From: an uncultured virus (IMG/VR IMGVR_UViG_3300034092_002263)
Lineage: Duplodnaviria; Heunggongvirae; Uroviricota; Caudoviricetes
Virus record (IMG/VR): IMGVR_UViG_3300034092_002263
Length of the DNA: 20,000 bases
Strand: one strand, 5' to 3'
Made by a program: the position numbers and the translations under genes. This document shows positions 2,989-20,000 of the stretch, piece by piece (positions within the stretch are counted from its first letter, which is position 1; each line of letters begins with the position of its first letter). The notes below the pieces were generated by a model, which searched no databases, was not told where the DNA came from, and saw only the letters and a program-made list of their open reading frames with translations.

Positions 2989-2992
2989 TTTA

Positions 2993-3691: not shown

Positions 3692-3730
3692 ATTCATTCT
3701 CCTTTGTCCAAAAATAACAATCTATGAGTA

Positions 3731-3740
3731 TATACACAAA
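3731..3740 (-). promoter_or_regulatory. Putative late promoter box TTTGTGTATA
   Basis: Same motif upstream of four late genes (3731, 6766, 8860, 17039). Confidence 0.65.
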
Positions 3741-3770
3741 AAGCCACCCCCAAAATGCTTTGAGGGTGGC
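3738..3770 (-). terminator. Rho-independent terminator after major capsid gene
   Basis: Minus strand GCCACCCTCAAA-GCAT-TTTGGGGGTGGC-TTTTT: 12-bp stem with one G.U pair, 4-nt loop, U5 tail, 25 nt after the capsid stop codon. Confidence 0.85.
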
Positions 3771-3795
3771 CCTGTGATTGGAACTAGATACTTAC

Positions 3796-4803: not shown

Positions 4804-4830
4804 ATTCATTTCTCCTTTGTTATTTTATAG

Positions 4831-5277
4831 TCAGGGTAGGTTAACTTCTACTTTGGCATAACCGTCTTCGTCTTTTGTTGAGACGAATGCGCCGATTGGA
4901 TTACCACTAGCAACTGTACTAACGTTGCCAGCCGTTACAGTGCATCGATAAGCGGTAGCACCCGCCGATGGTGCGCCTGTAACATTATTTGTCACGACGT
5001 AACCCTTACGTAGAACGGTTACTTTGCCGCCCTTCTGAACTTCATCCTTGTGCTGATTAAGATGAGTTCTTGTTAGATCCTTGTTAACTACATCGTTAAG
5101 AAGAATGCCAACTGGAACACCAGTTGTAGCATACTTAACAAGGTTAACACCTTGATCCATAGCAGCGCCAGAACCAGCAGTATCATATACAACTACCCCA
5201 CCGCGAGTTGCGGTGCCAGCATTGTAAAAGAAGCTAATGTCTGTCTGAAGTTCATATCTATCTGATTTTAGAGCCAT
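4831..5277 (-). CDS. Head decoration / capsid cement-like protein
   Basis: 148 aa, rich in G/A/V/T, PVGILLNDVV and GKVTVLRKGYVVT motifs, located between scaffold and capsid genes; AAGGAG RBS. Confidence 0.65.
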   Translation of the reverse strand: MALKSDRYELQTDISFFYNAGTATRGGVVVYDTAGSGAAMDQGVNLVKYATTGVPVGILLNDVVNKDLTRTHLNQHKDEVQKGGKVTVLRKGYVVTNNVTGAPSAGATAYRCTVTAGNVSTVASGNPIGAFVSTKDEDGYAKVEVNLP

Positions 5278-5294
5278 ATTTATTTCTCCTTATA

Positions 5295-6746
5295 TCACTT
5301 ACGAAGTACGTTGTTTTCAAGCCACTCTGCTACACTAGCTCTTGTGGCTAATAGTTCGTCTACATCATCAGAAGCATCGACTAGAGTGGCTTCAGTTGTT
5401 GAAACGCCTTCTAAAAGTTCTGCAACTTTTTCTTCAGCGACAGTTTCTTCTTCTGAAGTTTGTTCTGCCTTTGGCTTTTCTTCTTTCTTCATCATCTTCT
5501 CTTTGTCTTCTGACCACTTAGCCATTTTCTTTTTCATGGCTGTGATAACTGCGTCAAAAGTTTCGTCATCGAGAGAATCATAAGTAGCTAGTGATTCTTC
5601 TACTTCAGAATCATCAAAGCCAGCATCTAAAAGACTAGCCTTTCTCATAGCCATCTTTTCCTTTTTCTTCATCATGTACATTTCTTGATCCTTCTTCTTC
5701 ATTTCTTCATCCTTCATAGCAAGTGTTGCTTGAAGTTCAGAAACTGTAGCTTCTAATGTACTAATTGAAGTGTTTAAAGTTGTTATAGCTTGATCTTTTT
5801 CAGCCACTGTTGCCTCTAGCTTCGAAATAGAATCACTTTGCTCTTTCGATGTGAGTTCTTCTATTTGTGCGCGAAGAGTCTTATTTTCTTCTTTAGTAGA
5901 TGCTAGCTCACTACGCATGTCAGCAAGCTGCTTCTCTAAAAGATTTGAATCTGACATAATATCATCTCCTATTTGAAAATTAGTAATATCACTAACGTTT
6001 TTTTCAGTCGAGAAAGCCCTGCTTGCATCGAGAATAATACTTCTTGGATTAGCCGGTTTGGAAACCAAACCTTTTCCAGAAAATGAAATTTCTCTTAAAG
6101 ATCTACCAATTTTATAGCCTTCATACTCTCCTGTGCCGCCATATGCTCTTAGGTGTTTTGTTAAAAATGCAGAACCTTCGTTTCTCTCTAATAACTTAGA
6201 ATTGCCACTATTATCTATTAACGCATAATCAAAACCAGAAAATAAACATTCCATTGAGACAAACCACTTTCCTTCTTCTATTTCAGAAATGATTTTTTCC
6301 ATTCTGTCTCTGTTTTCTGGATTAGTCCAACTGTTATATATAACAGCCTCTGTGATTATATCAAACTCATTTGGTTTAACATCATCAGAAATTGGATTGC
6401 CGTTTTTGTCTACTACATAACTCCCGGTGATATGCCCTATGATATCATTTTCGTTGTGCATAAAATTAAATTGTTTGTCTTCTGGAGTATTTCTTGCCGC
6501 CCAAGTTTCTTCAGAAGAAAACACATCGTCATTTTTGTTCCATCCGGTTGATACTAATATTGATTTAATGTAGTATAAGTCTATTTGTTTTGGATTAGCA
6601 CTTTCTGCTTTAATCTTTTCTATGGCTAACGAAGAATTTAAATGACTATTTTCACATAATACTGCTGGCATACAATAAGCTATACTGGCTCTTGCTTGTA
6701 CAAGATCAGCTATGCCATCACGTATTTCTTGTTTAAATATTTTCAT
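5295..6746 (-). CDS. Prohead maturation protease fused to coiled-coil scaffold domain
   Basis: N-terminal half has FNFMHNENDIIGH, VSMEC and GLVSKPANPRS, resembling phage prohead (assemblin-like) protease motifs; C-terminal half is an acidic heptad-rich coiled coil; lies between portal and capsid. Confidence 0.75.
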   Translation of the reverse strand: MKIFKQEIRDGIADLVQARASIAYCMPAVLCENSHLNSSLAIEKIKAESANPKQIDLYYIKSILVSTGWNKNDDVFSSEETWAARNTPEDKQFNFMHNENDIIGHITGSYVVDKNGNPISDDVKPNEFDIITEAVIYNSWTNPENRDRMEKIISEIEEGKWFVSMECLFSGFDYALIDNSGNSKLLERNEGSAFLTKHLRAYGGTGEYEGYKIGRSLREISFSGKGLVSKPANPRSIILDASRAFSTEKNVSDITNFQIGDDIMSDSNLLEKQLADMRSELASTKEENKTLRAQIEELTSKEQSDSISKLEATVAEKDQAITTLNTSISTLEATVSELQATLAMKDEEMKKKDQEMYMMKKKEKMAMRKASLLDAGFDDSEVEESLATYDSLDDETFDAVITAMKKKMAKWSEDKEKMMKKEEKPKAEQTSEEETVAEEKVAELLEGVSTTEATLVDASDDVDELLATRASVAEWLENNVLRK

Positions 6747-6765
6747 TTGTGCCTCTCTTCAACAT

Positions 6766-6776
6766 TATACACAAAA
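6766..6776 (-). promoter_or_regulatory. Putative late promoter box TTTTGTGTATA(AT)
   Basis: Intergenic, ends about 20 nt before ATG 6746; same offset as the copy at 17039. Confidence 0.7.
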
Positions 6777-6794
6777 TAGCAAAAAAGTTATGTA

Positions 6795-8816
6795 TTATCC
6801 AATTTTTGACTCTATGTAGGCACCTATGACATATTTCCTAAAAGAATCTACATCCATTTCATTGACATCAATGTTGTTTTCTTTTAATTTCAACATTATT
6901 TCTTTTGGTGCTTTAACATTAGCTTTTAATAGAGAAATAATAGTACTATTTTCTACGTTGTCATAAGCTTCTAAGTTGCTAAATATATCTAACTTCATCA
7001 TTTCTAATTCTTGAAATTCTGCTTTAGTTAATTGCCTTAAATTCTTTTTTTGCTTAGTACCTAAATAAGCTTTAGTTATTAATTCAGAAACTTGATTCCA
7101 AGTTTTATCTGACCAAACTAAAATTTCAGCAACTCCGGGTTTTGACCTAGGTTGTTCAACCCTTTGTTTTCTAACCGTTTCATCTTGCTTTAGTGGAGGT
7201 CTTCCGTTTGGCTTAACTTCTGGTGGCTGACTTGTATTTTCCTTTTGTTTTTGCATTTTCATATTAAATTGATTTTGCTTGTCTATTTTCTCAAGATCGT
7301 TTTTATGATTTGCGTTATGAAATGGGCTAGCCTTTGGTGGCCCAGCGGTTTCTCTTTTTTCTAACTCTCTTTTTAGTCTAATATTCTCTATTTGTGGTAT
7401 CTCCTTAAATCTTTCTAGCAATGTCTCATGACTAATTATATCACGATCTGCCAGTTGAATTAATAGATTCTTTTGTGCAGCTTCATCAGATAACGTCATT
7501 TGATCAAATAATATGTGGGCTTTATGTCTAAATCCCATAGCCTGTCTAACTATCTCAACTTCTTTTTCCCAAAATCGGACTAGTTGATCTCTACCATATT
7601 GTAGTCTTTCAAGTAATGTTTTTAGAGAAATGAAGTTATTAGTAAAACCGCCACCATTATTAGCCATACCCGTTAGTGTTGGTGGAACGCCTAATCCAGC
7701 ATATATACTGTTAAGAACAGATGTATATTTTTCAGAACCTAAGAACTTATATACTTCACTGTTAGATTCTTTAAATTGTAATTCTGGACCCCAAACCAAC
7801 TCCATTGTGCCTCCACCAACATTGCTAGCTAAAATATCTCTTAATTTATTAATAGCAGCCTTATTTGGTAAAATCTTATGTTCTAAATTGCCAAGTGTCC
7901 ACAATCTAATATTTGATATAGCTCCATCTAATGCCGACAAGTCTGCCAATCTCATTTTTTCAAGCATTACTATATCGTCTAGAATGGCATAAATCATTGG
8001 GTTAGCCCACTGTTTCCAATCATCTTTCTTATAATAGAAAACGCTTAATCTTTCGGGATCTAGCGGAATATCTTTTTCTCCACGTAATAAACTCTGTTTT
8101 ATTGATGGTGGTAGTGTTTCTAAAACGTGATTTGGAATATCTCCAGCTTGAAATTTATCAAAAAAAGAATTGGTTGTAATAGTAAAGTTATTCAATCCCA
8201 TAAATAGTGACAAATTACCATCTTTAGATTTAACCGTAAGAGGATTGAAGAAATTATATCTCCAAGGTATTTCGTTAGATTTAGCATTTGGAACCTCAAC
8301 TCTGATGTCACTAGCCAAAGATTTCATATAAGTATTTAGTTGTGGTGTAATTTTGGCATAACTTCTGTATATAATCACATTGCCACATCTATAGAGATTA
8401 TTTAAAAATCTCTCTGATCTTTCTTTGCCATTAACATTTCTAAACCACTGTTGATAGAATTTCTCAACACTTTTATCTCTATGAACAATTTGTATACCTT
8501 GACTGCCAAAATCGCCCATTAGATCAATTATATTCCGAATAATTCCAACCTTATCATATGCATCCATGCACATTTTAATGATTTTTCTCTGTTGGCTTGG
8601 TACTGCCTCATCTGGCCTAAATGCGTAGTAATCTCTAGATGTAAATCCGGGTTTAACAGACCTATTTGGCTCAATATCTATAAAATGTCGATAATGATTT
8701 CCTTGAGTTTTATTTAATGAGGCATACGAGTCAACATTATCTGACAATTGTGACATAGCATTAGTTTTGCTGCTAAAATCTTCATCTCTCCATGTTATCA
8801 TTTCTTCATTATTCAT
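6795..8816 (-). CDS. Portal protein
   Basis: 673 aa between terminase and prohead protease; IIRNIIDLMGDF and IYAGLGVPPTL portal-like segments; low-complexity tail with GRPP. Confidence 0.78.
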   Translation of the reverse strand: MNNEEMITWRDEDFSSKTNAMSQLSDNVDSYASLNKTQGNHYRHFIDIEPNRSVKPGFTSRDYYAFRPDEAVPSQQRKIIKMCMDAYDKVGIIRNIIDLMGDFGSQGIQIVHRDKSVEKFYQQWFRNVNGKERSERFLNNLYRCGNVIIYRSYAKITPQLNTYMKSLASDIRVEVPNAKSNEIPWRYNFFNPLTVKSKDGNLSLFMGLNNFTITTNSFFDKFQAGDIPNHVLETLPPSIKQSLLRGEKDIPLDPERLSVFYYKKDDWKQWANPMIYAILDDIVMLEKMRLADLSALDGAISNIRLWTLGNLEHKILPNKAAINKLRDILASNVGGGTMELVWGPELQFKESNSEVYKFLGSEKYTSVLNSIYAGLGVPPTLTGMANNGGGFTNNFISLKTLLERLQYGRDQLVRFWEKEVEIVRQAMGFRHKAHILFDQMTLSDEAAQKNLLIQLADRDIISHETLLERFKEIPQIENIRLKRELEKRETAGPPKASPFHNANHKNDLEKIDKQNQFNMKMQKQKENTSQPPEVKPNGRPPLKQDETVRKQRVEQPRSKPGVAEILVWSDKTWNQVSELITKAYLGTKQKKNLRQLTKAEFQELEMMKLDIFSNLEAYDNVENSTIISLLKANVKAPKEIMLKLKENNIDVNEMDVDSFRKYVIGAYIESKIG

Positions 8817-8857
8817 GTTAAACCTTTTAATTGGATTGACAATGTGATTGATATAGA

Positions 8858-10831
8858 TTAATACACATCTTTCATATAATCTGAGAACCAGCTTGGTCCA
8901 GTATACATTTTGTCGTCATTTTTATTAGAATGACCACCAGTGGCAAATCCTCCATAGAATTTGTACTCTTCTTGTGTTGGTGTTCTTTGTTTTAGTCTAG
9001 ACGCCATATTAGCCATTAATAAAGCAGAATATCTATCTTTTCTCATTTTACTTTTTCTACCAGTACCAACTATTACTTCTGGCGTATCCCACCTATCTCT
9101 GCCATTTAATGTCTGCGTCATTTGTATCATAGATAATTCGTCTTTTAATTCTTCTATTTCAAGGACACATTCTTCTAAAGTATCAAACATTCGGTTTTTT
9201 ATATCGTCTTCGTGGTGTGACAGATCTATACTCAACGTATCAAAAAATGGAAATAATAGTACTTTGTCTTCAAAGTCTTTTCTCATTCCATGATTTGCTT
9301 CTGCTAACCATTCATGTTTAGCAAATTGACACATTTCTAATATGTGTAAACCTCTTTCTCCGTCAGTATCTTTTGGTTTTTCGTCATCTATCACGGGCCA
9401 TATTGCAATTTCACCATCTCTTAACTTATCCTTATCATGTAGAGACTCCATAACAGCAACTCCACCACCCTGCGCATCCATTGCTATGTGTACACATGGA
9501 AATAATTTCATTAAATCTCTAATTTTTCTAGCACAATAGGCATAAAAATCTGTTTCACTTACATATCCCTTTTTAACCTTTTCTTTGTGTTCTGTTCTAG
9601 TTGTTGTCCAACAGTGTACAATTCTTCTATGATCATTATTTAATTCAATAACGACAATGCTAAAGTTATCTACTTCAGAAGCCGGGTCTACGCCAAATAC
9701 ATATGTTTTATTTACATCACCAATTAATGAAGCTTCAAAATGTATTTCATTTCCAGCACTATCTTGAATTTGATTATCTGTAGACACAACACATGATTCT
9801 ATTAAAGATCTCTTAAAGAATCCTTGACTATCTCTCGTAAAACAAGCCCCATATTCCATTTGATAAATGCCCGTATGCACTGTTGCTTTTGATCTTGCAA
9901 CTTGATCTGCGTCCATGAAGCCTTTTGGTAGTAGTTCATATGGCATTCTAATAATAGAATATTGTGTCCAATCAAAGTTTTCTGGCGGATCTTCACTAAA
10001 AATTTCTCTTAGTTTTATGATATCTCCTCGACTTTTGATTATAGATTTCCACTTTTTCCAGTAAGCTGCAAAATGATTAAAATCATAATAAGCTGTACCA
10101 GATAAAACAATTTGATTATCTTTTTGTTCTATAACATCTGATTGAGCAAGCTCTATACCTAATTCTTTAGCTTTTTTTCTTGCAGCATACTTCTTTACAT
10201 TTTCTACTGGATCTGCGCTGACTGCTGCGAAACCAGCGACTACGTTCTCAAAAATTTCTCTTGGTATTGAAGCAAACTCATCAGCAATAATATCATTTGC
10301 TCTTTGTCCTCTAATTTTTTGACCATCTCCTAGCGGCAAACATGTTATAGTACTTTCATTAAGTCTTAAAGTACATCTATCCGTATCTCTTCTTGGTCCA
10401 CTATCTCCATCACAAATATCTCGTAACATTGGTGAGTTGCGCCATATGGTTTCCATATATTCAAATAATACTTTAGACTGCCTAAATGCTGCACCAACAA
10501 TAACAACTTTTCTCTTTGGTAAAATTAAAGCTCTAAGAATTGAATACAAAGATAACATAAATGATTTACCAAAACCTCGACTAGCAATTAACATTGGAAA
10601 TTTTCTATTCCAAATTTCGTTTAAGAACAAAGCTTGAGAAGGTAATAGTTGAATATTTAATATGTGGCTAGTCAAGAATGATAAATATTCTGGTCGAGTC
10701 ATTAACCAAGCAAGCCTAAGATTAAAATCTTCATGTGCTGGATTAGCTATAGACATTGGATTGAAAAAATCCGTATCTATATTCTCTAATCCCAGCCACG
10801 CTTCTTCAATATTTTTTAATTTAGTGGTCAT
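8858..10831 (-). CDS. terL: Terminase large subunit
   Basis: Q motif (LLPSQ), Walker A ASRGFGKS, Walker B IRGQRANDIIADE, coupling motif LSGT, RNase H-like nuclease FGVDPAS...MDAQGGG...KDRYSAL. Confidence 0.92.
   Translation of the reverse strand: MTTKLKNIEEAWLGLENIDTDFFNPMSIANPAHEDFNLRLAWLMTRPEYLSFLTSHILNIQLLPSQALFLNEIWNRKFPMLIASRGFGKSFMLSLYSILRALILPKRKVVIVGAAFRQSKVLFEYMETIWRNSPMLRDICDGDSGPRRDTDRCTLRLNESTITCLPLGDGQKIRGQRANDIIADEFASIPREIFENVVAGFAAVSADPVENVKKYAARKKAKELGIELAQSDVIEQKDNQIVLSGTAYYDFNHFAAYWKKWKSIIKSRGDIIKLREIFSEDPPENFDWTQYSIIRMPYELLPKGFMDADQVARSKATVHTGIYQMEYGACFTRDSQGFFKRSLIESCVVSTDNQIQDSAGNEIHFEASLIGDVNKTYVFGVDPASEVDNFSIVVIELNNDHRRIVHCWTTTRTEHKEKVKKGYVSETDFYAYCARKIRDLMKLFPCVHIAMDAQGGGVAVMESLHDKDKLRDGEIAIWPVIDDEKPKDTDGERGLHILEMCQFAKHEWLAEANHGMRKDFEDKVLLFPFFDTLSIDLSHHEDDIKNRMFDTLEECVLEIEELKDELSMIQMTQTLNGRDRWDTPEVIVGTGRKSKMRKDRYSALLMANMASRLKQRTPTQEEYKFYGGFATGGHSNKNDDKMYTGPSWFSDYMKDVY
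8860..8867 (-). promoter_or_regulatory. Variant late promoter box TGTGTATT overlapping the terminase stop codon
   Basis: GAT GTG TAT TAA at the end of terL, about 44 nt upstream of the portal ATG. Confidence 0.45.
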
Positions 10832-11472
10832 TCTTTGATATGCCAGTGATCTAATATTGCATCAGCAAAACCATAATACACGGCTTCTTCTGCGTTTAGA
10901 TACCAATCTCCATTTTTAAATTTTCTTATCAAAAATTGCTTAACTTGTTTTTCACTTGGTTTCTTTCCAAACTTCTCATAGAAAAACTTACCGTCAACAC
11001 ATCTTTTTGCATAAACATTAAACATCACATCACAAATTCGTTTTTCATAATCGGCTTGACTCATTGCGCTTAAATAATCTGTATTAATATCGGTAGATCC
11101 ATAGTGACACATAAAGTGAGCATTTGGAGTCATGTATCTATAATCCGCAGCTTGAAGAAAAATGCTACTCATAGATTCAGCTTGACCATAAACAATCATA
11201 GTAATATAAGATCTACACATTTGTATAGCATCATAAATAGCCATGCCGTCTGTCCATACTCCTCCAATACTATGAGAGTGTATTGTAATATTGGCATTAT
11301 TTCTTATATCTAAGGCTCTTAAATTTTTGATAAACGTATTAGACATTCTATATTCAACGCCGGGATTTTCGTTATCTTCGCTATTGTAGTGATTATGTAA
11401 AAATATTTCCCTAGTATTGATGTTGGCACCATAGTCGTGGAAATCTTTCAGTAATTCTGGTTCTGCCATCAT
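10828..11472 (-). CDS. clpP: ClpP-like serine protease (peptidase S14)
   Basis: REIFL, IHSHSIGG..DGMAIYDAI, GQAESMSSIFLQA (catalytic Ser), FMCHYGS (His), DWYLNAEEAVYYGFAD. Confidence 0.88.
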   Translation of the reverse strand: MMAEPELLKDFHDYGANINTREIFLHNHYNSEDNENPGVEYRMSNTFIKNLRALDIRNNANITIHSHSIGGVWTDGMAIYDAIQMCRSYITMIVYGQAESMSSIFLQAADYRYMTPNAHFMCHYGSTDINTDYLSAMSQADYEKRICDVMFNVYAKRCVDGKFFYEKFGKKPSEKQVKQFLIRKFKNGDWYLNAEEAVYYGFADAILDHWHIKE

Positions 11473-11966
11473 TTTTTCCTCCCTATAGTGTACATTTCAT
11501 TAATTCTTTTAAAGATACTACTAACAGCTAAAAATGCATTTCTCCTGTCTCCACAAAATAAAACATGCACATCGTTATACAGTTCAAACTCTATTAAACA
11601 TTTAAGCATATATTTACCAGTAATTTTTAAAGCAGACTTATTTCGCACCGGTATTCGCGTGTGTTGAGGAAAGTTAATTAAATCTTGTAAAGAAAATTCC
11701 AGTATTAAATACTTGTGAGGAAAAACTTTCATCCTTTCAATTTCATTTAAGAATGTATATTTCTTTTGTCCTAGATTAATAGCAAGTTCTTCAACACAGC
11801 CCTTTCTTTCTATACAGATTTTATCTTCCAAGCCTTGTATGGAATAATCTCCAGTGTCTAATTTCTGTTCTATCATGCCTGCGCATGTGTTGAAATTATT
11901 AAATTCATACCCTTCTTTTTCTCGGGTATCTCTAATAACAAAAAATTTAGGTGCGTTTGGTTGCAT
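11469..11966 (-). CDS. ERCC4-domain (XPF/Mus81-like) nuclease
   Basis: DTRE...KLDTGDYSI...ICIERK signature. Confidence 0.85.
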   Translation of the reverse strand: MQPNAPKFFVIRDTREKEGYEFNNFNTCAGMIEQKLDTGDYSIQGLEDKICIERKGCVEELAINLGQKKYTFLNEIERMKVFPHKYLILEFSLQDLINFPQHTRIPVRNKSALKITGKYMLKCLIEFELYNDVHVLFCGDRRNAFLAVSSIFKRINEMYTIGRKK

Positions 11967-12222
11967 TATGAATTATTTCTGTAAATACTACTTCGTAGTG
12001 GTTTTCTTTACCAGTTATTGATTCATGGCACTCTTTACAAAGCGTAATGCCATTTAATGGATCATATCTTAATGATGCTGCTTTTGACCAAGGTTTAATA
12101 TGATGTACATTTAATTTCTTTCTAGAGTTACAGTTTGGCATTTGACACTTGTATTTGTCTCTTTTTAATACTGACTTTCTAAACTCACTATAATCTTTAT
12201 CATTATAGTTTCTCTTCTTCAT
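11947..12222 (-). CDS. HNH endonuclease
   Basis: VLKRDKYKCQMPNC...HHIKPW...NGITLCKECH. Confidence 0.9.
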   Translation of the reverse strand: MKKRNYNDKDYSEFRKSVLKRDKYKCQMPNCNSRKKLNVHHIKPWSKAASLRYDPLNGITLCKECHESITGKENHYEVVFTEIIHNATKRT

Positions 12223-12467
12223 AATAATATTACCTTATATATTCTCATATGCCTATGTATTTTACGACACATAATTCGACTTTCTATAGAATTATCTTTT
12301 TCTACAATAGTATGAAGTAATCTTTGTGTAAATGTATAGCAAGCATCATCTGGATTATCTGCCTCAAGGAATACTAAAAAAAATGGAAAAGAATATTCTT
12401 TGATTAAGTTATCTTTTATTTGCATATATATACTAGATAAATCCACACTAAGTTTAAAGTTTTGCAT
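12219..12467 (-). CDS. Hypothetical protein (82 aa)
   Basis: Fills the gap and overlaps both neighbours; EADNPDDACY motif. Confidence 0.7.
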   Translation of the reverse strand: MQNFKLSVDLSSIYMQIKDNLIKEYSFPFFLVFLEADNPDDACYTFTQRLLHTIVEKDNSIESRIMCRKIHRHMRIYKVILL

Positions 12468-13494
12468 CTATCATCATTTTAACCAAATCTTCAAGACTGT
12501 ATTCTGCTTTCCAGCCTAATTTTTCTTGTGCTTTTGTACAATCCCCTCTTAGGAAATCTACTTCTGAAGGTCTATAAAATTGTGGATCTATGACAATTAG
12601 TTGTCTCCATTCTGTTAATCCAACATAATTAAAAGCAATATCTAAAAATTCAGCAACTGTGTGAGTCTTTCCAGTGCAAATAACATAATCGTCTGGATAA
12701 TCCTGCTGTAGCATTAACCACATAGCCTCTACATACTCTCCAGCATATCCCCAATCACGAAATGCTTCTAAATTTCCTAGTCTTAGTTTTGGAAAAATCT
12801 GTCCATTAATAATGATATTATCTTCATCAAACTTAATTTCTCCGTTATACTTAACATGTTTAGTCCATCTCACATAATTTGCAATCCAATTTATGATTTT
12901 TTGGGTAACAAAGTTGTCGCCCCTTCTTGGACTTTCGTGATTAAATAATATGCCAGAACTAGCATGTAAATTATGAGCATTGCGAAACAAACGCACGAAA
13001 TGATGAGCGGCACACTTAGCAATTGCGTATGGGGAATTGGGCATAAATTTTGTGTCTTCATCTTGATATTTTTCTCCACAGGCGTTTGTATCGTAAGAAC
13101 TTCCAAACATTTCGCTAGATGAAGCTTGATAAAATCTAGTGTTATATAGCCCAAGATCAACTATTGCTTGTAGAATAGTTAGACATCCTTTTCCAGTAAT
13201 ATCCCAAGTGAGTGCTGGTTGTGAAAAAGATGTGCCAACGTGAGACTGTGCAGCTAAGTTATAGATTTCATCTACATGATCGTTCCAAGAAAGAATATTG
13301 TATATATTGCTTGCATCTGTAATATCGCCTTCTATCAATCTGAAATTATCTGCATCTAATAAGTGTTTTATTCTTTGTGTGTTGTCTGTACTACACCTTC
13401 GTGAAACTCCAATGACTTCATAACCCTTACTCATTAGTAGGTCCGCTAGATAGCTTCCATCTTGTCCGGTAATTCCAAAAACGATAGCTTTCAT
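12454..13494 (-). CDS. gmd: GDP-mannose 4,6-dehydratase
   Basis: GITGQDGSYLA, EIYNLAAQSHV, FYQASSSEMFG, SPYAIAK, GILFNHESPRRG, LGNLEAFRDWG, YRPSEVDFLRGD. Confidence 0.96.
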   Translation of the reverse strand: MKAIVFGITGQDGSYLADLLMSKGYEVIGVSRRCSTDNTQRIKHLLDADNFRLIEGDITDASNIYNILSWNDHVDEIYNLAAQSHVGTSFSQPALTWDITGKGCLTILQAIVDLGLYNTRFYQASSSEMFGSSYDTNACGEKYQDEDTKFMPNSPYAIAKCAAHHFVRLFRNAHNLHASSGILFNHESPRRGDNFVTQKIINWIANYVRWTKHVKYNGEIKFDEDNIIINGQIFPKLRLGNLEAFRDWGYAGEYVEAMWLMLQQDYPDDYVICTGKTHTVAEFLDIAFNYVGLTEWRQLIVIDPQFYRPSEVDFLRGDCTKAQEKLGWKAEYSLEDLVKMMIDAKL

Positions 13495-14234
13495 ATATTC
13501 TCCTTATATTCTTCATATAAAAAATTCCTAGCCAACACATCTTCTTCATCATTAAGATCTAGATATTCTAAATGCTCTTCAAACTTTCTGTATGTTCCAG
13601 TGTCTGCTCTTCCTCTATTACACTTGATAAATAATTCTTCTTTTGTTTTTGATAGATAATGATTTAATTGTGCTATGGACCAATCAACTGGAGTATTAAA
13701 TGGACCTGTTCTTGGTTCTTTATTTAAGTTGTGCCAAGTAGTACCTAAATTATGTATATGAACCATATGATTAGTTGGAAGTTTAACAATAGATTTAATA
13801 TGATTATTGTGAGCATATGTTGATTTTCCTTTATGGGTAAATCTTTTTAATACGCTATATTCTCCATTTACAACTGATTTGTGTCCACTGTCTCCAAATA
13901 GCGCCCAGTTAATACCTATAGCAGCATAATCATTATAATCCTGTAAAAAACTTTTCACATGGTTGTGTTTCTTTAATACCAAAAATTCATCTACATCAAA
14001 AAAAGCAGCCCAATTATATCCGTTAGATTTAGTTTTAACAAAATCGTTATAAGCCTCAAGCTGTTTAGCAAATCCGTTATACTCATATATAGATACTTTT
14101 TTATTGTCGGTGCTATATTTCCAATCATTAGCATAAACAAACACATGATCAAATTCAAGTTTGATATGATAATCTATCCACTCTTTTATGTAGTGGTCTT
14201 CATTTTTAGCTATACAAACAAGAGCTGTTTTCAT
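13491..14234 (-). CDS. GT-A fold glycosyltransferase (GT92 / GT2-like)
   Basis: CIAKNEDHYIKEWIDYH, WAAFFDVDEF (DxD), INWALFG, KSIV, LNHY.SKT.EE. Start moved to ATG 14234 (ATGA overlap with upstream stop). Confidence 0.85.
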   Translation of the reverse strand: MKTALVCIAKNEDHYIKEWIDYHIKLEFDHVFVYANDWKYSTDNKKVSIYEYNGFAKQLEAYNDFVKTKSNGYNWAAFFDVDEFLVLKKHNHVKSFLQDYNDYAAIGINWALFGDSGHKSVVNGEYSVLKRFTHKGKSTYAHNNHIKSIVKLPTNHMVHIHNLGTTWHNLNKEPRTGPFNTPVDWSIAQLNHYLSKTKEELFIKCNRGRADTGTYRKFEEHLEYLDLNDEEDVLARNFLYEEYKENI

Positions 14235-14836
14235 TTTTGTAATATGCCTATATATATACCATTCCAAAAACCGTCTAGGCATCCATTTTTGTTAGTTAAT
14301 ATAGTACGTGAATCTATTACTTTTAGGTTACATTTTTTTATTCCAGACTCTGTTCCTTCTTGGACTTCTACCCAATTAAAATCATCACATATATACATAA
14401 AAGTTTCGTCCATACATTCATAGTAGTATGTTAAAGCCTGTTCTTGATCTTGCTTAGTATGCCCACCGTCATAAAAATAAATATTAAAGCTGTTTTTTAA
14501 CAGGCTTTTGTCAAACTTAAAGCAGTCACAATTAAAAAAGGAATAGTTTGTTTTTATATCGGACATATTAGAACTAAAGATATCAAAATTACCACTAAAT
14601 TGAGAAAAGTCGTCTATAGCTATTGCGTATTCTGGATTATTGTTACATAGTGCTGAATAAAAAGTTGATCCATGCCATACGCCTATTTCTAAATATTTAG
14701 CGCCCCTAAACGACACAGCTTTATTTAATAATCTACGAACTTTAGAACTAGACATGCCACGCATTGACAAAGCTTTACCATCTAACATAGCGCTATCATC
14801 GTTTGCAAAATTCAGTAGTGTATCTATGTTATACAT
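14231..14836 (-). CDS. Class I SAM-dependent methyltransferase (Methyltransf_24-like)
   Basis: YLEIGVWHGST, AIDDF, YFYDGGH, ICDDFNW motifs. Confidence 0.85.
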   Translation of the reverse strand: MYNIDTLLNFANDDSAMLDGKALSMRGMSSSKVRRLLNKAVSFRGAKYLEIGVWHGSTFYSALCNNNPEYAIAIDDFSQFSGNFDIFSSNMSDIKTNYSFFNCDCFKFDKSLLKNSFNIYFYDGGHTKQDQEQALTYYYECMDETFMYICDDFNWVEVQEGTESGIKKCNLKVIDSRTILTNKNGCLDGFWNGIYIGILQK

Positions 14837-14837
14837 A

Positions 14838-15623
14838 TTAATCCTTTACAGTATCTGGAGATAATAATGGCTGATCAATAGTTCCATCTTCATATTTATG
14901 GAAAGAACTTAATCGCTCTTCTTCTTTTTTCATTGCCACCCTCATCTTTTCCATTTCTATTCCGTATTTTTTCATTAAGTCTGGGCTTTGCAATAAATTA
15001 GCAACCCAGCTTGTAAAACTCTGTTTAGAGTCTTCTAACCTCTTTATGCGCTGTTCTCTTGTTCCCTTCATCTCCCTTAATATGGCCGCTTTCTTTGTCT
15101 GTAACTCCCTATAATCTCTATTCAAACTTTCTTGCGAAGCCCTTAGAGAGGCCACCTGTCTTTCTAAGTTAATAATATAATCCATATCTTGTTGATCTTT
15201 GTCTTTACTGCGTTCGTCGCGCACCATTTTTTCATAGGTACTAATTTGTTCTATATTATCCTTATTGCCCTTCAAGCATCTATTCATAAGAATCTCTAAT
15301 TTAATAACGTCGATTACTTGTAATTCTTCGGTGGGGAATACATCGTCCTTAAACTGTGAAATTATGCGCGACCAGTGATACTTAAATAGGTCGAGTTCCT
15401 CTTCAGTAAATTGTTCTTTTAGATCTAGCCAATATGGGCGATCTTCAAGTGAGAAGGCCGCAAACTCTTCTCCGGTTAAACCAACCTTAAATTTTCGTTT
15501 TATGAAATAGTCTACAGACTCAACGTCTCTATCTAATTGTTTGGCTATATCTTCTACGGTCAAACTGTTTACAAGTCTGCCAATAATGCGTTCTTCCTCT
15601 TTAGAGATTCTACCCTTTTTCAT
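14838..15623 (-). CDS. HTH plus coiled-coil protein; candidate terminase small subunit
   Basis: N-terminal KGRISKEEERII...TVEDIAKQLDR helix-turn-helix-like segment, long coiled coil; upstream of terL and no other TerS candidate is evident. Function is inferred. Confidence 0.45.
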   Translation of the reverse strand: MKKGRISKEEERIIGRLVNSLTVEDIAKQLDRDVESVDYFIKRKFKVGLTGEEFAAFSLEDRPYWLDLKEQFTEEELDLFKYHWSRIISQFKDDVFPTEELQVIDVIKLEILMNRCLKGNKDNIEQISTYEKMVRDERSKDKDQQDMDYIINLERQVASLRASQESLNRDYRELQTKKAAILREMKGTREQRIKRLEDSKQSFTSWVANLLQSPDLMKKYGIEMEKMRVAMKKEEERLSSFHKYEDGTIDQPLLSPDTVKD

Positions 15624-16101
15624 TTATGATATCCTTAATTTTTTTGATTAGGGCTTCACGTTTAGTACTAACTAAATTCATGCCGTTGATTAATTTCAAG
15701 AAGTCTTCTCTCATGGAAATTGGTAAATGCGCCTCCACCAATTGCATTAGTTGCTTTTGATCTATCTCCTCTATGTCCATCTCATAATATTGTGAGTTGC
15801 AATTTGTGTCATGAAAAAAACTTATAGGAGATAAGACTTTCTTTTTCTCTAAATCTTTAGCGTTTCCAAAATTATCCCTAACAAAATTCTTCAGTCGATT
15901 AGAAAGATTAACGGATAGAAAATTCTCAAGGGGCCGACAATTGTCATAGCGGTTTAGGGCGTCAACACATATAATAAACGCCTCTTGTTTTATATCATCT
16001 ACCTCGTATCCATTAAATGTATACCTTGGGGCGATTCTATTAATCACCGTTTGTATTATATGCATTGTTTCTTGCTCTGTCATATTCTTTGGTATTTTCA
16101 T
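15610..16101 (-). CDS. Phage-encoded sigma70-family sigma factor
   Basis: Region 2 pattern DDIKQEAFIICVDALNRYD..RPLENFLSVNLSNRLKNFVR; short C-terminal region. Start moved to 16101 (ATGA overlap). Confidence 0.8.
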   Translation of the reverse strand: MKIPKNMTEQETMHIIQTVINRIAPRYTFNGYEVDDIKQEAFIICVDALNRYDNCRPLENFLSVNLSNRLKNFVRDNFGNAKDLEKKKVLSPISFFHDTNCNSQYYEMDIEEIDQKQLMQLVEAHLPISMREDFLKLINGMNLVSTKREALIKKIKDIINEKG

Positions 16102-16883
16102 TTTAGATTCACCCACTCAGACCCGTTGTAGTATTTCAATACATTATCTGTTATGTCAAATACAACATCTCCAGCATCTGGTTTGCTTGGCTTTTCTGTA
16201 GAAGCAAAGGTGAGTTTATTTAATTCAAGCGTCTTGGTATATAACTTAGAGGTCTTTAGTATCAACTGATTTTTAAAGTCCTTGAGTGTTTTTACCACAC
16301 CCTTTGTAAAACTTTCTAAGGAAAATAAACTATCAAGAGATATATTTTCAATTCCATCATTTAGTCTACCGATAACGGAATTTGTTGAGGTGCGCAGCGC
16401 GGTTGGTCCGTTACTAGAGGTGTATGGTATGGTATTTTCTTCTATAAATAGTTGTAGAGCATTAGATACTCTATAAACATATATGTGTATGTATTCATCT
16501 AGACCTTGGGCGCGTACATTATAGAAGTGTGGGTTGGGGGTTGCGTCGTTGCCATGTTGATGAAACAGACAATACAATCTATTAATATACTGCTTTCCTT
16601 CTAATATTTCAAACTCTGCTAGTCCAACTTCTGAGATTAATAAATCAGACTTATTATAGTGCAATAATTCGTAGTAAAAAGTATATCCTTCTCCAATATT
16701 GGATAGAAAACTATTACACTCACAAGTATAGTGTGGGTTTACTTGTTGGTACTTTTGTATATTATTGCAGGCTTGATCACAACCAGTTAATAATAATCTA
16801 GGATACAGGGTGGGATCTGTAATAAGATTACATGCTTCCACTACTGTCTTGTGTGTCGTCTTTAGTGGTTTCTGTAGAATCAT
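16098..16883 (-). CDS. Hypothetical protein with virion-type C-terminal motif
   Basis: 261 aa; ends in GDVVFDITDNVLKYYNGSEWVNL, a G-x3-(F/Y)D...Y.G..W motif common in phage fibre/structural proteins. Confidence 0.6.
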   Translation of the reverse strand: MILQKPLKTTHKTVVEACNLITDPTLYPRLLLTGCDQACNNIQKYQQVNPHYTCECNSFLSNIGEGYTFYYELLHYNKSDLLISEVGLAEFEILEGKQYINRLYCLFHQHGNDATPNPHFYNVRAQGLDEYIHIYVYRVSNALQLFIEENTIPYTSSNGPTALRTSTNSVIGRLNDGIENISLDSLFSLESFTKGVVKTLKDFKNQLILKTSKLYTKTLELNKLTFASTEKPSKPDAGDVVFDITDNVLKYYNGSEWVNLK

Positions 16884-17019
16884 CTTGTTCCTTTCCTAAT
16901 ACTTCTTCCATTGGTCTATCTTCTTTAACGAGATCGCGTAAAGCTGACTCGCTGGCTTTAACAGAAGCCTTACAATGCAATTGACAATGTAATTTAATTG
17001 GATTATTTTGATTGTTCAT
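16828..17019 (-). CDS. Small hypothetical protein, first gene of the late block
   Basis: AAGGAG RBS 6 nt before ATG and TGTGTATA box just upstream. Confidence 0.65.
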   Translation of the reverse strand: MNNQNNPIKLHCQLHCKASVKASESALRDLVKEDRPMEEVLGKEQDDSTETTKDDTQDSSGSM

Positions 17020-17038
17020 ATGTTTCTCCTTGACTTAT

Positions 17039-17048
17039 TATACACAAA
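17039..17048 (-). promoter_or_regulatory. Putative late promoter box TTTGTGTATA(AT)
   Basis: Head of the minus-strand block, about 20 nt before ATG 17019. Confidence 0.7.
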
Positions 17049-17155
17049 GGTGCGAATAAATGCATTTAGGTTGGGTGCGATGCTAATGGATCGGGTAATA
17101 CATAAATATTTATATTGGTTATTGTGAATGAACCACCCCGCGTTTTTTGGCAGTT

Positions 17156-17171
17156 TGGCACGGTATTTGCA
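17156..17171 (+). promoter_or_regulatory. Sigma54 -24/-12 box (perfect consensus)
   Basis: TGGCACG-GTAT-TTGCA; GG-N10-GC. Confidence 0.75.
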
Positions 17172-17200
17172 CAGAAGATAAAACCCCCCTACCTAGCGGG

Positions 17201-17389
17201 TGTAGCAAAATGCTGTAGCAAAACGCTACACACTGTAGCAAAATGCCACACCGGTAAGAACCGAGTCTCATGTTGAGAATCGCGTAAGTCCATATGCCAC
17301 AAGCACTTAGGTAAAAAGAAAAATAATTTTGTCTTTGGCACGATATGTGCATATATATAGGACAACAAAGAAAGAGAGAGTGAAAGATG
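17201..17389 (+). repeat. Regulatory cassette copy 1: palindromic operators + dyad + sigma54 box + purine-rich leader
   Basis: TGTAGCAAAATGCTGTA 17201, TGTAGCAAAACGCTACA 17214, TGTAGCAAAATGCCACA 17234, AGTCTCATGTTGAGAAT 17264, 29-bp dyad 17283, TGGCACG box 17336, AAGAAAGAGAGAGTGAAAGATG. Imperfect direct repeat of 18429-18612. Confidence 0.85.
17336..17351 (+). promoter_or_regulatory. Sigma54 -24/-12 box
   Basis: TGGCACG-ATAT-GTGCA, about 35 nt before ATG 17387. Confidence 0.75.
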
Positions 17390-17584
17390 AATAGAAAGTT
17401 TCGCAGTGCTGCTTCTAACCTCCGAGCCTATCGGGCTTCCCGTACTTCCTCATACCGTCCATACGGTTCGGATGATGGATACGATTACCATAGGGACAAC
17501 CGTGATGGATCGGTTGACGATTACGTTGCATTCGTTGCAGAATGGAGAAAGAAGAAAGAAGAAGAAAAATCCAAGACCCCCTAA
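17387..17584 (+). CDS. Small hypothetical early protein (65 aa)
   Basis: Directly downstream of cassette 1 and its purine-rich leader; basic N-terminus, acidic middle. Confidence 0.65.
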   Translation: MNRKFRSAASNLRAYRASRTSSYRPYGSDDGYDYHRDNRDGSVDDYVAFVAEWRKKKEEEKSKTP

Positions 17585-17593
17585 GAGTGAGGG

Positions 17594-17621
17594 TTGCGGC
17601 GGCAGAAAAGTTTGGTAGGAT
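17594..17621 (+). promoter_or_regulatory. Sigma70-like promoter TTGCGG-N16-TAGGAT
   Basis: Near-identical to 18749-18776; intergenic; TGn before the -10 element. Confidence 0.6.
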
Positions 17622-17645
17622 CGTAGAAAAGAAAGAGAGAAAAAG

Positions 17646-17807
17646 ATGAAGCGTTGGACTCAAGACTATCGGTATATCGTTTGGACGGTGACCGAGGGTA
17701 CGCATGATCGGTATGATCTGTACGTTGCTGGTGTGCTGAAGTACACTAATCTTCCGTTTGAACAGTTCTATCCGATTTACAAAGTAGAATCCGCCAAGGT
17801 ATCCTGA
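17646..17807 (+). CDS. Small hypothetical protein (53 aa)
   Basis: MKRWTQDYRYIVWTVTEGTHDRYDLYVAGVLKYTNLPFEQFYPIYKVESAKVS; purine-rich leader; below the ORF-track cutoff. Confidence 0.65.
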   Translation: MKRWTQDYRYIVWTVTEGTHDRYDLYVAGVLKYTNLPFEQFYPIYKVESAKVS

Positions 17808-17825
17808 GAAAGAAAGAAAAAGAAA

Positions 17826-18143
17826 ATGGAAAAGTTCCCTATTGTCGAACAGTACAAGCGTACAGTGCGTGGTATCTTCTACGGTATTGCAATCCCTTGC
17901 GATAAGCGTACCGCTGATGGTAGTACGATTCGCAGCGAGAAGGTATTGAAGTTCAATCGTTCCGCTCTGCGAAAGATTGGCAAGCGTAAGGTCGAGAAGG
18001 TCGATCCTCGCGTTGTTGGTACTGTAGATCATATGCGGTTTCCCGTTGGCAAGCCCGGTTCCCCCGAAAGGGTGGCCGCTCTGGCAAAGCAGTATGCTAG
18101 CCTGAGTGAAGATGAGATGTCGCCCTTTATTGGAGATGAGTGA
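17826..18143 (+). CDS. Hypothetical basic protein (105 aa)
   Basis: A-rich leader, coherent ORF, C-terminal PGSPERVAALAKQY motif. Confidence 0.75.
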   Translation: MEKFPIVEQYKRTVRGIFYGIAIPCDKRTADGSTIRSEKVLKFNRSALRKIGKRKVEKVDPRVVGTVDHMRFPVGKPGSPERVAALAKQYASLSEDEMSPFIGDE

Positions 18144-18147
18144 GAAC

Positions 18148-18297
18148 ATGACCATTCAAGTACAAAATACGCTCCGTCGCCTTGTTGCTCATCATGGTTA
18201 TTCGGCTACATTTGTACAGCATATGGGAGAGGGTATATGTATGTACAGTATCGGAGGTATCATGTACCGCATAAGGGGGGATGGTACGATTCTCTAA
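18148..18297 (+). CDS. Small hypothetical protein (49 aa)
   Basis: MTIQVQNTLRRLVAHHGY...; ATG 4 nt after the upstream stop. Confidence 0.6.
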   Translation: MTIQVQNTLRRLVAHHGYSATFVQHMGEGICMYSIGGIMYRIRGDGTIL

Positions 18298-18305
18298 GAA
18301 CTCGA

Positions 18306-18387
18306 CGCAAACCCTTGTGGCGTAAGGACTTACGGCAAGGGCGGCGGGCCGGATTCGTCGTAAACCCTTATGCCATAAGGACTTATG
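18306..18387. repeat. Two tandem 29-bp dyad elements with GC-rich linker
   Basis: CGCAAACCCTTGTGGCGTAAGGACTTACG (18306-18334) and CGTAAACCCTTATGCCATAAGGACTTATG (18359-18387); same family as 17283 and 18510. Confidence 0.8.
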
Positions 18388-18428
18388 TCTCATCTAATGT
18401 AGACCGCTAGACGCACCCCACATAGTGG

Positions 18429-18612
18429 TGTAGCAAAATGCTGTGCAAAATGCAACGGTGTGTGGCAAAATGCTACAGTGCCACGAATCGCGTCTCAAAT
18501 TGAGAAAATCGTAAACCCTTGAAAATACTAGACTTACGATCCCAAAAATATTTTTCAGACTTTGGCACGGGAAGTGCATTATATAGAGACATAAGAAAGA
18601 GAGTGAAAGATG
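18429..18612 (+). repeat. Regulatory cassette copy 2
   Basis: TGTAGCAAAATGCTGTG 18429, CTGTGCAAAATGCAACG 18441, TGTGGCAAAATGCTACA 18461, CGTCTCAAATTGAGAAA 18491, dyad 18510-18538, TGGCACG box 18563, AAGAAAGAGAGTGAAAGATG. Confidence 0.85.
18563..18578 (+). promoter_or_regulatory. Sigma54 -24/-12 box
   Basis: TGGCACG-GGAA-GTGCA, about 31 nt before ATG 18610. Confidence 0.75.
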
Positions 18613-18732
18613 GAAAAGATGGTTGTGATTTACGTTTCCGATTGTTGTGGTTGTGAGAGTAATATGGATTATGAAGTGTGTTCTAGTTGTGGTGAACACT
18701 GTGAGATCATAAAGGAAGAATATTCCGTTTGA
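18610..18732 (+). CDS. Tiny Cys-rich zinc-ribbon-like protein (40 aa)
   Basis: MEKMVVIYVSDCCGCESNMDYEVCSSCGEHCEIIKEEYSV; directly after cassette 2. Confidence 0.7.
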   Translation: MEKMVVIYVSDCCGCESNMDYEVCSSCGEHCEIIKEEYSV

Positions 18733-18748
18733 TCCCTCACCTTGGGGG

Positions 18749-18776
18749 TTGCGGCGGCGGAAACGTTTGGTAAGAT
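18749..18776 (+). promoter_or_regulatory. Sigma70-like promoter TTGCGG-N16-TAAGAT
   Basis: Repeat of 17594-17621; 18 nt before ATG 18795. Confidence 0.6.
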
Positions 18777-18794
18777 TGAAGAAAAGGATTAGAA

Positions 18795-18989
18795 ATGACT
18801 GACAGCAAAAAGCAAGTTTTAGATTTTATTAGCAAGATGGAAACGAATATACTTGGAAGATGGATGGTAAACATGCAGAAAATTTCCAGTAATGTTTCCG
18901 TTCATGCTAGAGAGTTTCCTAACATGTGCGTTAGTTTAGCCGCTAGTGAGTTGCTTCGACGTTATCGTGAGAATAGAAATGACCGCTAA
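18795..18989 (+). CDS. Small hypothetical protein (64 aa)
   Basis: AAGGA RBS, promoter directly upstream. Confidence 0.65.
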   Translation: MTDSKKQVLDFISKMETNILGRWMVNMQKISSNVSVHAREFPNMCVSLAASELLRRYRENRNDR

Positions 18990-19134
18990 AACTAAAAGTG
19001 GAACCGCTGTAACCGTCAACACTTTCGATGTTATCATTGAAGATGGTAAGCCGGTTATTATGTTCTTTGTAAAAGATGAAAATGGTCAGTATGGTATCTT
19101 CAATCAAAACGAACTGCATGAATTCAAGGAGTGA
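18979..19134 (+). CDS. Small hypothetical protein (51 aa)
   Basis: MTAKTKSGTAVTVNTFDVIIEDGKPVIMFFVKDENGQYGIF...; short overlap with the upstream gene. Confidence 0.6.
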   Translation: MTAKTKSGTAVTVNTFDVIIEDGKPVIMFFVKDENGQYGIFNQNELHEFKE

Positions 19135-19136
19135 TA

Positions 19137-19298
19137 ATGCAAGATAATATCATTTTTCTAATCGGATGTTTTATTGTCGCCGGTCTTATGTGCGAGGTAG
19201 TGTGGAGCGTGTTTCTATATGTCGTCTCCCGCTTGGAATATTATTTTTACCACCGATACCTTGACAAGGTTTCTAAGTCTGGTACAATCGAGGAATGA
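19137..19298 (+). CDS. Small membrane protein (53 aa)
   Basis: MQDNIIFLIGCFIVAGLMCEVVWSVFLYVVSRLEYYFYHRYLDKVSKSGTIEE; AAGGAG RBS upstream. Confidence 0.6.
   Translation: MQDNIIFLIGCFIVAGLMCEVVWSVFLYVVSRLEYYFYHRYLDKVSKSGTIEE
19261..19288 (+). promoter_or_regulatory. Sigma70 promoter TTGACA-N16-TACAAT
   Basis: Near-consensus hexamers with extended TGn -10. Confidence 0.7.
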
Positions 19299-19384
19299 TA
19301 GCACTAATGACAGCGTTTCATGCGTTTATCGTTTTGACCGCGTGTGCGATTGGTATTTTCTCCCTATTTAGTGAAGAAGTATGA
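19295..19384 (+). CDS. Putative 29-aa hydrophobic peptide
   Basis: MIALMTAFHAFIVLTACAIGIFSLFSEEV; ATGA overlaps at both ends. Confidence 0.5.
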   Translation: MIALMTAFHAFIVLTACAIGIFSLFSEEV

Positions 19385-19686
19385 ATCACGAAACTAAACT
19401 TGTTATGATGTGGATTGACAATAGCGAAGCAATGCATTATTTCTGGCGTAATCGTGCGTATTGTACATATCTAAAAGCAGAAGAAACTAAGACGTTTTCT
19501 AAGTATGAGTCGGCCAAGTACGATCTGGCTACATACATGAAGGAAAAGTTTACAACCGATATGTACGAAATGTGTGAATCACACAATGTAAATGGACTGT
19601 GGGCCGATTTGCTTTCGTCTGCTTTGCAAGAAGTAAACTGGTCCGAAATTGCAGAATGTTATCTTGAAGGTCAACTCGTCTCTTGA
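19381..19686 (+). CDS. Hypothetical phage protein (101 aa)
   Basis: N.ET.LV..WIDN.E ... DLL..AL.EVNW.EIA pattern recurrent in uncharacterised phage early proteins. Confidence 0.75.
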   Translation: MNHETKLVMMWIDNSEAMHYFWRNRAYCTYLKAEETKTFSKYESAKYDLATYMKEKFTTDMYEMCESHNVNGLWADLLSSALQEVNWSEIAECYLEGQLVS

Positions 19687-19710
19687 CAAACCCAACCCAC
19701 ACGGTATAAT
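19683..19710 (+). promoter_or_regulatory. Sigma70 promoter TTGACA-N16-TATAAT
   Basis: Perfect hexamers, 18 nt before ATG 19729. Confidence 0.8.
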
Positions 19711-19728
19711 AGAGAAAAAGGAAAAAAC

Positions 19729-20000
19729 ATGGATACGTTCAACGTCGCCCTTGCTATTGCATTTCTTGTTCTGGTTGCTTGTATTGTTTTACTTCTTATT
19801 ACGGGAGGTGCATACGATAGTCTTTCTAATGCTCGTATTGGTAATGTGTACAATTTCTATTATCTCCAACCGTTAAATGGTACGAATAATCGTTATCTCG
19901 TCAAGGTACTAAACATTCGCACACTTGATAAAGAGGAAATTAATTCTCTTAACTGTTTTAGTTTGTACCGTCGATGGGATGATATATTCTTTCGCACTGG
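19729..20000 (+). CDS. Membrane-anchored hypothetical protein, truncated by window edge
   Basis: MDTFNVALAIAFLVLVACIVLLLITGGAYDSLSNARIGNVYNFYY...; open to position 20000; AAGGA RBS. Confidence 0.7.
   Translation, partial: MDTFNVALAIAFLVLVACIVLLLITGGAYDSLSNARIGNVYNFYYLQPLNGTNNRYLVKVLNIRTLDKEEINSLNCFSLYRRWDDIFFRT

Follow-up and report, generated by a model that had tools for sequence, protein, structure and literature searches.

Here we examine a 20,000-nucleotide stretch from an uncultured Caudoviricetes phage (IMG/VR record IMGVR_UViG_3300034092_002263; hereafter, the window), in which two repeated noncoding cassettes each end in a promoter-like box (P1 and P2) followed by a small gene. With moderate confidence, we read P1 and P2 as enhancer-dependent promoters of sigma-54 (RpoN) RNA polymerase that work with a host activator. 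A third, stand-alone box (P0) is probably an enhancer-dependent sigma-54 promoter as well. Transcription of early and middle phage genes is usually ascribed to host sigma-70, phage sigma factors, or phage polymerases, and our literature search brought up no study of a virulent phage with sigma-54 enhancer promoters.

A scan of the window for TGGCACG-N4-KTGCA returned exact matches at 17156 (P0), 17336 (P1), and 18563 (P2), all on the plus strand. Three such boxes compare with 0.05 expected, and none of 200 shuffles gave three. An earlier, sequence-only reading of this DNA had listed the plus-strand boxes at 17336 and 18563, as found here, and had missed the exact copy at 17156. The GG and GC of the −24 and −12 elements (TGGCAC-N5-TTGCW) lie exactly 10 bp apart, and the −24/−12 consensus also occurs in two unrelated contexts of these phages, namely the P0 type TGGCACAGATTTTGCA and TGGCATGAAAATTGCT. 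Reading the box as a sigma-70 promoter (TTGGCA with TATATA) was rejected because the spacer would be only 12–13 nt by our own count. Moreover, no sigma-70 hexamers 16–18 bp apart overlap the P1 or P2 box on the plus strand.

The P1 and P2 boxes are each embedded in a cassette comprising three GCAAAATGC-type sites, a TCTCA-N3-TGAGA palindrome, a dyad, and an A/T tract at fixed distances, and P0 stands without repeat sites upstream. GCAAAAYGC occurs six times in the window (0.39 expected), always on the plus strand and always within the two cassettes (starts in Table 1). TCTCA-N3-TGAGA occurs twice, once per cassette, at 17266 and 18493 (0.02 expected). The fixed geometry claimed from the letters alone was borne out: every element is present, the third site and the dyad begin 102 and 53 bp upstream of the box in both cassettes, and the first repeat begins 135 bp (cassette 1) or 134 bp (cassette 2) ahead of it. 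One distance required correction, as GTCTCA begins 71 bp upstream in both cassettes instead of 72 bp. Linkers between these elements have diverged in an alignment of the two window cassettes. Relative to the predicted start, the cores of the first site cluster are centered near −153, −140, and −120, which agrees with the placement of activator sites proposed earlier, and the site type resembles published activator motifs. The form TGT-N11-ACA is found at site 3 of both window cassettes and at site 2 of cassette 1; the invariant part of the upstream sites is a 9-bp core.

The same unit recurs in related phages. The 17-mer that opens the cassette was located at 26 loci in 18 IMG/VR contigs of 8 to 178 kb, and a GG-N10-GC box sits at offset 135–136 from it in all 11 distinct contexts having at least 165 nt; six more matches fall too near a contig end to judge the box. 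By anchoring on the TCTCA-N3-TGAGA palindrome, we gathered 21 distinct cassettes. All of them retain GG-N10-GC, with TGG and GCAT invariant and the bases between taking nine forms; the boxes thus behave as sigma-54 −24/−12 elements with a free spacer, as had been proposed. Spacing is co-conserved in these relatives as well: TCTCA precedes TGG by 70 bp in 20 cassettes and by 69 bp in one, and the core centers are held rigidly at 126–127, 113–115, and 94–95 bp from TGG. In all 21 cassettes, the cores therefore fall within the range of roughly 70–200 bp upstream in which activator sites are sought. Mean pairwise identity is 0.93 for the palindrome versus 0.63 (minimum, 0.35) for the 57-bp linker. 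Compared with the large relatives G002 (178 kb) and G003 (131 kb), the window has structural genes of only 66–75% identity, and the cassette geometry has therefore been held through substantial divergence.

Box orientation bears on an alternative in which sigma-54 polymerase would bind the boxes as roadblocks or decoys rather than as promoters, the repeats being operators of a phage regulator or origin-like iterons. An inactive sigma-54 holoenzyme sitting on DNA is known (PMC4591121). Boxes that face against genes occur in related phages, and P0 itself is inverted between lineages: a segment of ~35 bp carrying the box is reversed between window positions 17144–17185 and L049 positions 2895–2945 in the G003 lineage, with the outer flanks unmoved. 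The P0-type box faces right in the window and left in the G003 lineage, where it shares a site cluster with the rightward cassette. Among the 21 cassettes, however, the box faces the gene in every case, and in 18 the first ATG follows the GC by 31–48 nt, with a purine-rich leader between; the remaining three have no ATG within the 220-nt extract. The sites are also −94 to −127 bp from the box, a spacing typical of activators and not of operators. We consider the roadblock or decoy explanation very unlikely.

In the preferred sigma-54 reading, host RNA polymerase carrying sigma-54 would dock on TGGCA-N7-TGCA as a closed complex. A AAA+ enhancer-binding activator would occupy the three GCAAAATGC sites, ~120–153 bp upstream of the start, possibly with a second activator on the TCTCA-N3-TGAGA palindrome near −90. 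The activator would then loop over the dyad and the A/T tract to reach the polymerase, and the promoter would open. Each cassette would transcribe one small gene, starting ~12 nt after the GC (Table 1), and the cassette genes would be conditional on a host signal if, as seems most likely, the activator is a host protein. The genes may be early ones, judging from gene position.

The case for a host activator derives from domain searches. The activator AAA+ domain (PF00158) is found in none of the 28 open reading frames (ORFs) of the window, which also has no rpoN gene; the earlier observation that the window encodes no activator thus stands. A search of relatives gave the same outcome, with PF00158 and the RpoN DNA-binding domain (PF04552) each found in 0/5 related records (66–178 kb, including two with a completeness of 90% or more). 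No gene for an activator having turned up in this phage family, a host origin is the most likely one. An unlikely variant retains the sigma-54 promoters and has the phage supply the activator, either virion-borne or made early, from outside the recognized activator families. Identity of the upstream sites between phages diverged to 66–75% would fit a conserved phage protein as well, and a family is lacking for many phage ORFs, among them those of the G003 proteins of 2,600 and 1,958 amino acids. In addition, G002 encodes a RuvB-like AAA+ protein, and a preprint proposes an activator-like fold, without the GAFTGA motif, for a T4-like phage protein. Apart from the PF00158 result in the five records, this variant is opposed by the RuvB-like protein itself, which has full RuvB domains and falls closest, among Atlas clusters, to viral RuvB families. 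Furthermore, no Fis-type or other DNA-binding domain was detected among the window ORFs scanned. We assign a similarly low probability to a phage-made activator unrelated to the known AAA+ enhancer-binding proteins, which would be virion-borne or expressed from the nearby sigma-70 promoters, with the GCAAAATGC triplet as its target. In that case, the cassettes would constitute a phage-timed middle switch that hijacks the sigma-54 enzyme of the host.

Several other promoter types surround the cassettes. On the strand of the small genes, one near-perfect and one perfect sigma-70 promoter (Table 1) suggest a host with canonical −35/−10 promoters. In each cassette, the first gene is succeeded by a conserved hairpin and then TTGYGG-16-TGGTAGRAT, a combination that appears twice more in G003 (L049, ~3385–3430 and ~4345–4395) and is a candidate extended −10 promoter, although it may instead be a processing site. 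Leftward genes are preceded by a different motif, TTTGTGTATAAT, upstream of 17019 (17037–17048, minus strand) and 6746 (minus strand), with the variant TTTGTGTATATA upstream of 3697 (minus strand). This motif may be a promoter type read by the phage's own sigma-70-family protein, a region 2 protein encoded at 15610–16116. The phage thus seems to have at least three promoter classes, the sigma-54 type being one of them. Dependence of infection onset on sigma-54, as suggested by the sequence-only reading, is consequently not established and was overstated, given the sigma-70 promoters at 19261 and 19683 and the extended −10 candidates behind the first genes.

These promoter classes are also relevant to the idea that a phage-specific factor or polymerase reads the boxes, their sigma-54 likeness being convergent. 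Pieces of the sigma-70 family are indeed encoded (region 2 in the window and region 4 in a G002 protein), and large proteins are unannotated. Nevertheless, three unrelated contexts match both elements with precisely the 10-bp spacing, the motif of the leftward genes is better suited to a phage sigma factor, and no RNA polymerase family was found among the G003 ORFs scanned. We regard a phage-specific reader as improbable. A 4,746-amino-acid G003 protein considered as a virion RNA polymerase was rejected, as it is a tape measure protein.

Returning to the reading of P1 and P2 as sigma-54 promoters with a host activator, known systems offer partial parallels. At glnAp2 (NtrC) and nifH (NifA and integration host factor [IHF]), 7-3-7 sites are separated from the box by a bendable region. 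The phage cassettes share the 7-3-7 layout, with the outer sites 32–33 bp apart in the window, and a bendable region before the box; the A/T-rich tract of cassette 1 is a possible intrinsic bend. They differ from these systems in site sequence and in lacking the full IHF consensus. The NtrC consensus cited in the earlier reading, TGCACCA-N3-TGGTGCA, does not describe the phage sites, whose sequence is TGTAGCA-AAA-TGCTACA or a variant of it, with differences at symmetric positions. An IHF site, as implied earlier, is unproven: between sites and box, the full consensus WATCAANNNNTTR is matched exactly in 0/21 cassettes and with at most one mismatch in 11/21. The CAA-N4-TTR core of the IHF motif is present in 20/21 cassettes, but these form only about four sequence classes, so its presence lends weak support to IHF.

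Closer matches to the phage sites are found among other activators. TGT-N10-12-ACA is the motif of fifteen Clostridiales activator groups, as it is of NifA and FhlA (PMC6615313); the activator-site supplement for Clostridiales contained no match to the phage core. In the sigma-54 promoter Pqrr1 of Vibrio fischeri, LuxO and SypG sites both lie between −175 and −60, and PMC10162802 gives the LuxO site as TTGCAWWWTGCAA, whose C and A are required for activation, and the SypG site as TTCTCANNNTGMDWN. The phage core GCAAAATGC is the same as the LuxO motif stripped to its inner 9 bases, the phage GTCTCA-N3-TGAGAA agrees with the SypG motif at 11/12 specified positions, and the two site types occur together in a single sigma-54 promoter. 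The inner GCAWWWTGC fits 60/63 phage sites, the other three reading GCAAAACGC. In contrast to the Vibrio promoter, the phage, with a GC content of ~32%, has three sites in one orientation and does not conserve the outer TT/AA, and nothing was found that ties it to a Vibrionaceae host. The LuxO/SypG likeness is a sequence resemblance only and not evidence of binding.

The number of sites recalls Escherichia coli norVW, where exactly three NorR sites are needed and are read as three dimers forming a hexamer (PMC2831303). As in the phage cassettes, three adjacent sites lie upstream of a sigma-54 box; the NorR sites have another sequence, and the NorR gene is next to its target, whereas the phage cassettes have no activator gene nearby. 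A precedent for host regulators at phage promoters comes from Bacillus phages phi29 and Nf, whose early promoters contain Spo0A sites (PMC2731898). These are virulent phages with host-regulator sites, in which host state shapes phage transcription; their promoters depend on sigma-A and are repressed, whereas the cassettes would be activated, enhancer-dependent sigma-54 promoters. A putative sigma-54-like protein has also been reported for Pectobacterium phage Q19 (PMC7693777).

Scans of bacterial genomes provided a further parallel. Searching for TGTNGCAAAATGCNACA matched at least 121 stretches, and 80 were fetched for inspection. Most of these loci appeared chance-like, and five had a sigma-54 box close by, three being aldehyde dehydrogenase loci of Rhodanobacteraceae/Lysobacteraceae (Xanthomonadales) in which the palindrome lies ~145–160 bp upstream of the box. 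In two Rhodanobacteraceae genomes (L171 and L172), TGTCGCAAAATGCGACA is situated between a gene for a sigma-54 activator of 640–665 amino acids and the box before an ExaC-like aldehyde dehydrogenase gene, and it is probably the binding site of the adjoining activator. It contains the phage core and lies ~145–160 bp ahead of its own box; the loci differ from the cassettes in having one perfect palindrome instead of three sites, a high-GC chromosome, and an activator encoded alongside. Among 401 genomes of one bacterial class, 5 matched TGTNGCAAAATGCNACA, and the four new loci had no sigma-54 box. Neither scan yielded a host for the phage among the TGTNGCAAAATGCNACA matches listed and the 401 genomes. 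The far end of the G002 "provirus" record (an extra 35 kb) was considered as host DNA and rejected, as it is phage, with the RuvB-like gene and its viral nearest clusters. One tRNA only was detected in the loci scanned.

A number of observations weigh against the sigma-54 reading with a host activator. The −12 element in the cassettes is GTGCA or TCGCA rather than TTGCA. Core orientation is uniform (6/6 in the window and 63/63 across the 21 cassettes), and such co-orientation is unusual for dimeric activators. Site 1 is a TGT-N11-ACA palindrome in 0/21 cassettes, site 2 is palindromic in 6/21 (N11) or 10/21 (N10), and site 3 in 7/21, so that the site unit looks partly direct-repeat-like. The outer TT/AA of the LuxO motif is not retained. 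A hidden phage polymerase or activator is conceivable in the two large G003 proteins that lack a family match, and the nearby sigma-70 promoters could drive early expression without sigma-54. The reading also presumes a host with RpoN and a matching activator. Finally, transcript data (four runs, small shares, assembled contigs only) contributed a sole RNA-library contig over the region, which spans the P2 box and reaches 62 nt upstream of it; the start sites given here are predicted from box positions.

The cassettes lie at a change of strand and composition within the window. Positions 1–17019 hold minus-strand phage genes, as judged by ORF and domain scans, including tail-fiber-like proteins, a major head protein, a portal-sized ORF, a large terminase, a ClpP-like protease, a GDP-mannose dehydratase, and the sigma-70 region 2 protein. 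From 17387 on, the plus strand carries small ORFs without a family match. GC content is 0.43–0.44 at 17001–19000 versus 0.31–0.36 in the structural genes, and that of the phage is ~32%. GGAG ribosome-binding sites precede several late genes, and Rfam gave no match on 16800–20000. Ahead of cassette 2, the tandem units at 18302–18385 read CGTAAACCCTT...AAGGACTTA and are related, in inverted form, to the dyad inside cassette 1. Feature coordinates are collected in Table 1.

Table 1. Boxes, cassette elements, neighboring promoters, and small genes in the window (positions count from its first nucleotide; interpretations are predictions).
Feature	Position	Strand	Remarks
P0, stand-alone box TGGCACGGTATTTGCA	17156..17171	+	Without repeat sites upstream
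P1, box TGGCACGATATGTGCA	17336..17351	+	GG 17337-8, GC 17349-50; predicted start ~17362
P2, box TGGCACGGGAAGTGCA	18563..18578	+	Predicted start ~18589
Site cluster 1	17200..17250	+	Cores GCAAAATGC 17205, GCAAAACGC 17218, GCAAAATGC 17238
Palindrome GTCTCA-N3-TGAGA, cassette 1	17265..17278	+	TCTCA 70 bp ahead of box
Dyad CGTAAGT...ACTTAGG, cassette 1	17283..17311	+	Contains CAA-N4-TTA core 17297-17309
A/T-rich tract directly 5' of P1 box	17313..17331	+	Sequence
Site cluster 2	18428..18478	+	Cores 18433, 18445, 18465
Palindrome GTCTCA-N3-TGAGA, cassette 2	18492..18505	+	Sequence
Dyad CGTAA...TTACG, then A/T palindrome CAAAAATATTTTTC	18510..18556	+	Sequence
Two tandem palindromic units, 31 nt each	18302..18385	+	Ahead of cassette 2
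Hairpin, then candidate extended −10 promoter TTGCGG-16-TGGTAGGAT	17576..17621	+	Repeated at 18734-18776
Sigma-70-type promoter TTGACA-16-TACAAT, TG extension	19261..19288	+	11/12 positions
Sigma-70 consensus promoter TTGACA-16-TATAAT	19683..19710	+	12/12 positions
First gene behind P1, 65 aa	17387..17584	+	Without family match
Three small ORFs, 53/105/49 aa	17646..18297	+	Without family match
First gene behind P2, 40 aa, Cys-rich	18610..18732	+	Without family match

The phage is remote from cultured ones. Among GenBank phages, 4 kb of the window had no blastn match and no cultured relative was found; the best matches of the terminase, to Bacillus phages, are only 26% identical. The relative G003 encodes DnaB, primase, a split PolIII alpha, ribonucleotide reductase, and PhoH. 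Its 4,746-amino-acid tape measure protein (75004–89244, L173) identifies the phage as long-tailed, and a protein of that length implies an unusually long tail for G003. Two tail proteins in L048 (2150–6582) have an Mtd_N domain, and several G003 proteins have FGE-sulfatase (C-type-lectin-like) domains, a combination known from the targets of diversity-generating retroelements. Most of the 18 IMG/VR contigs have their cassettes no more than ~5 kb from one end. Assemblies probably break at the repeated cassettes; alternatively, this part of the genome may be close to its end.

Taken as we read it, a conserved, multicopy sigma-54 enhancer unit would recur across widespread uncultured freshwater phages of ~130–180 kb. 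If this is true, some phage genes would fire only with an ATP-driven activator switched on, amounting to a tight, signal-gated switch. Should the activator be the host's, the phage would read host physiology, for example through metabolic, stress, or quorum-type regulators. With their fixed geometry, the cassettes are also compact natural parts suited to testing the rules of enhancer–promoter spacing.

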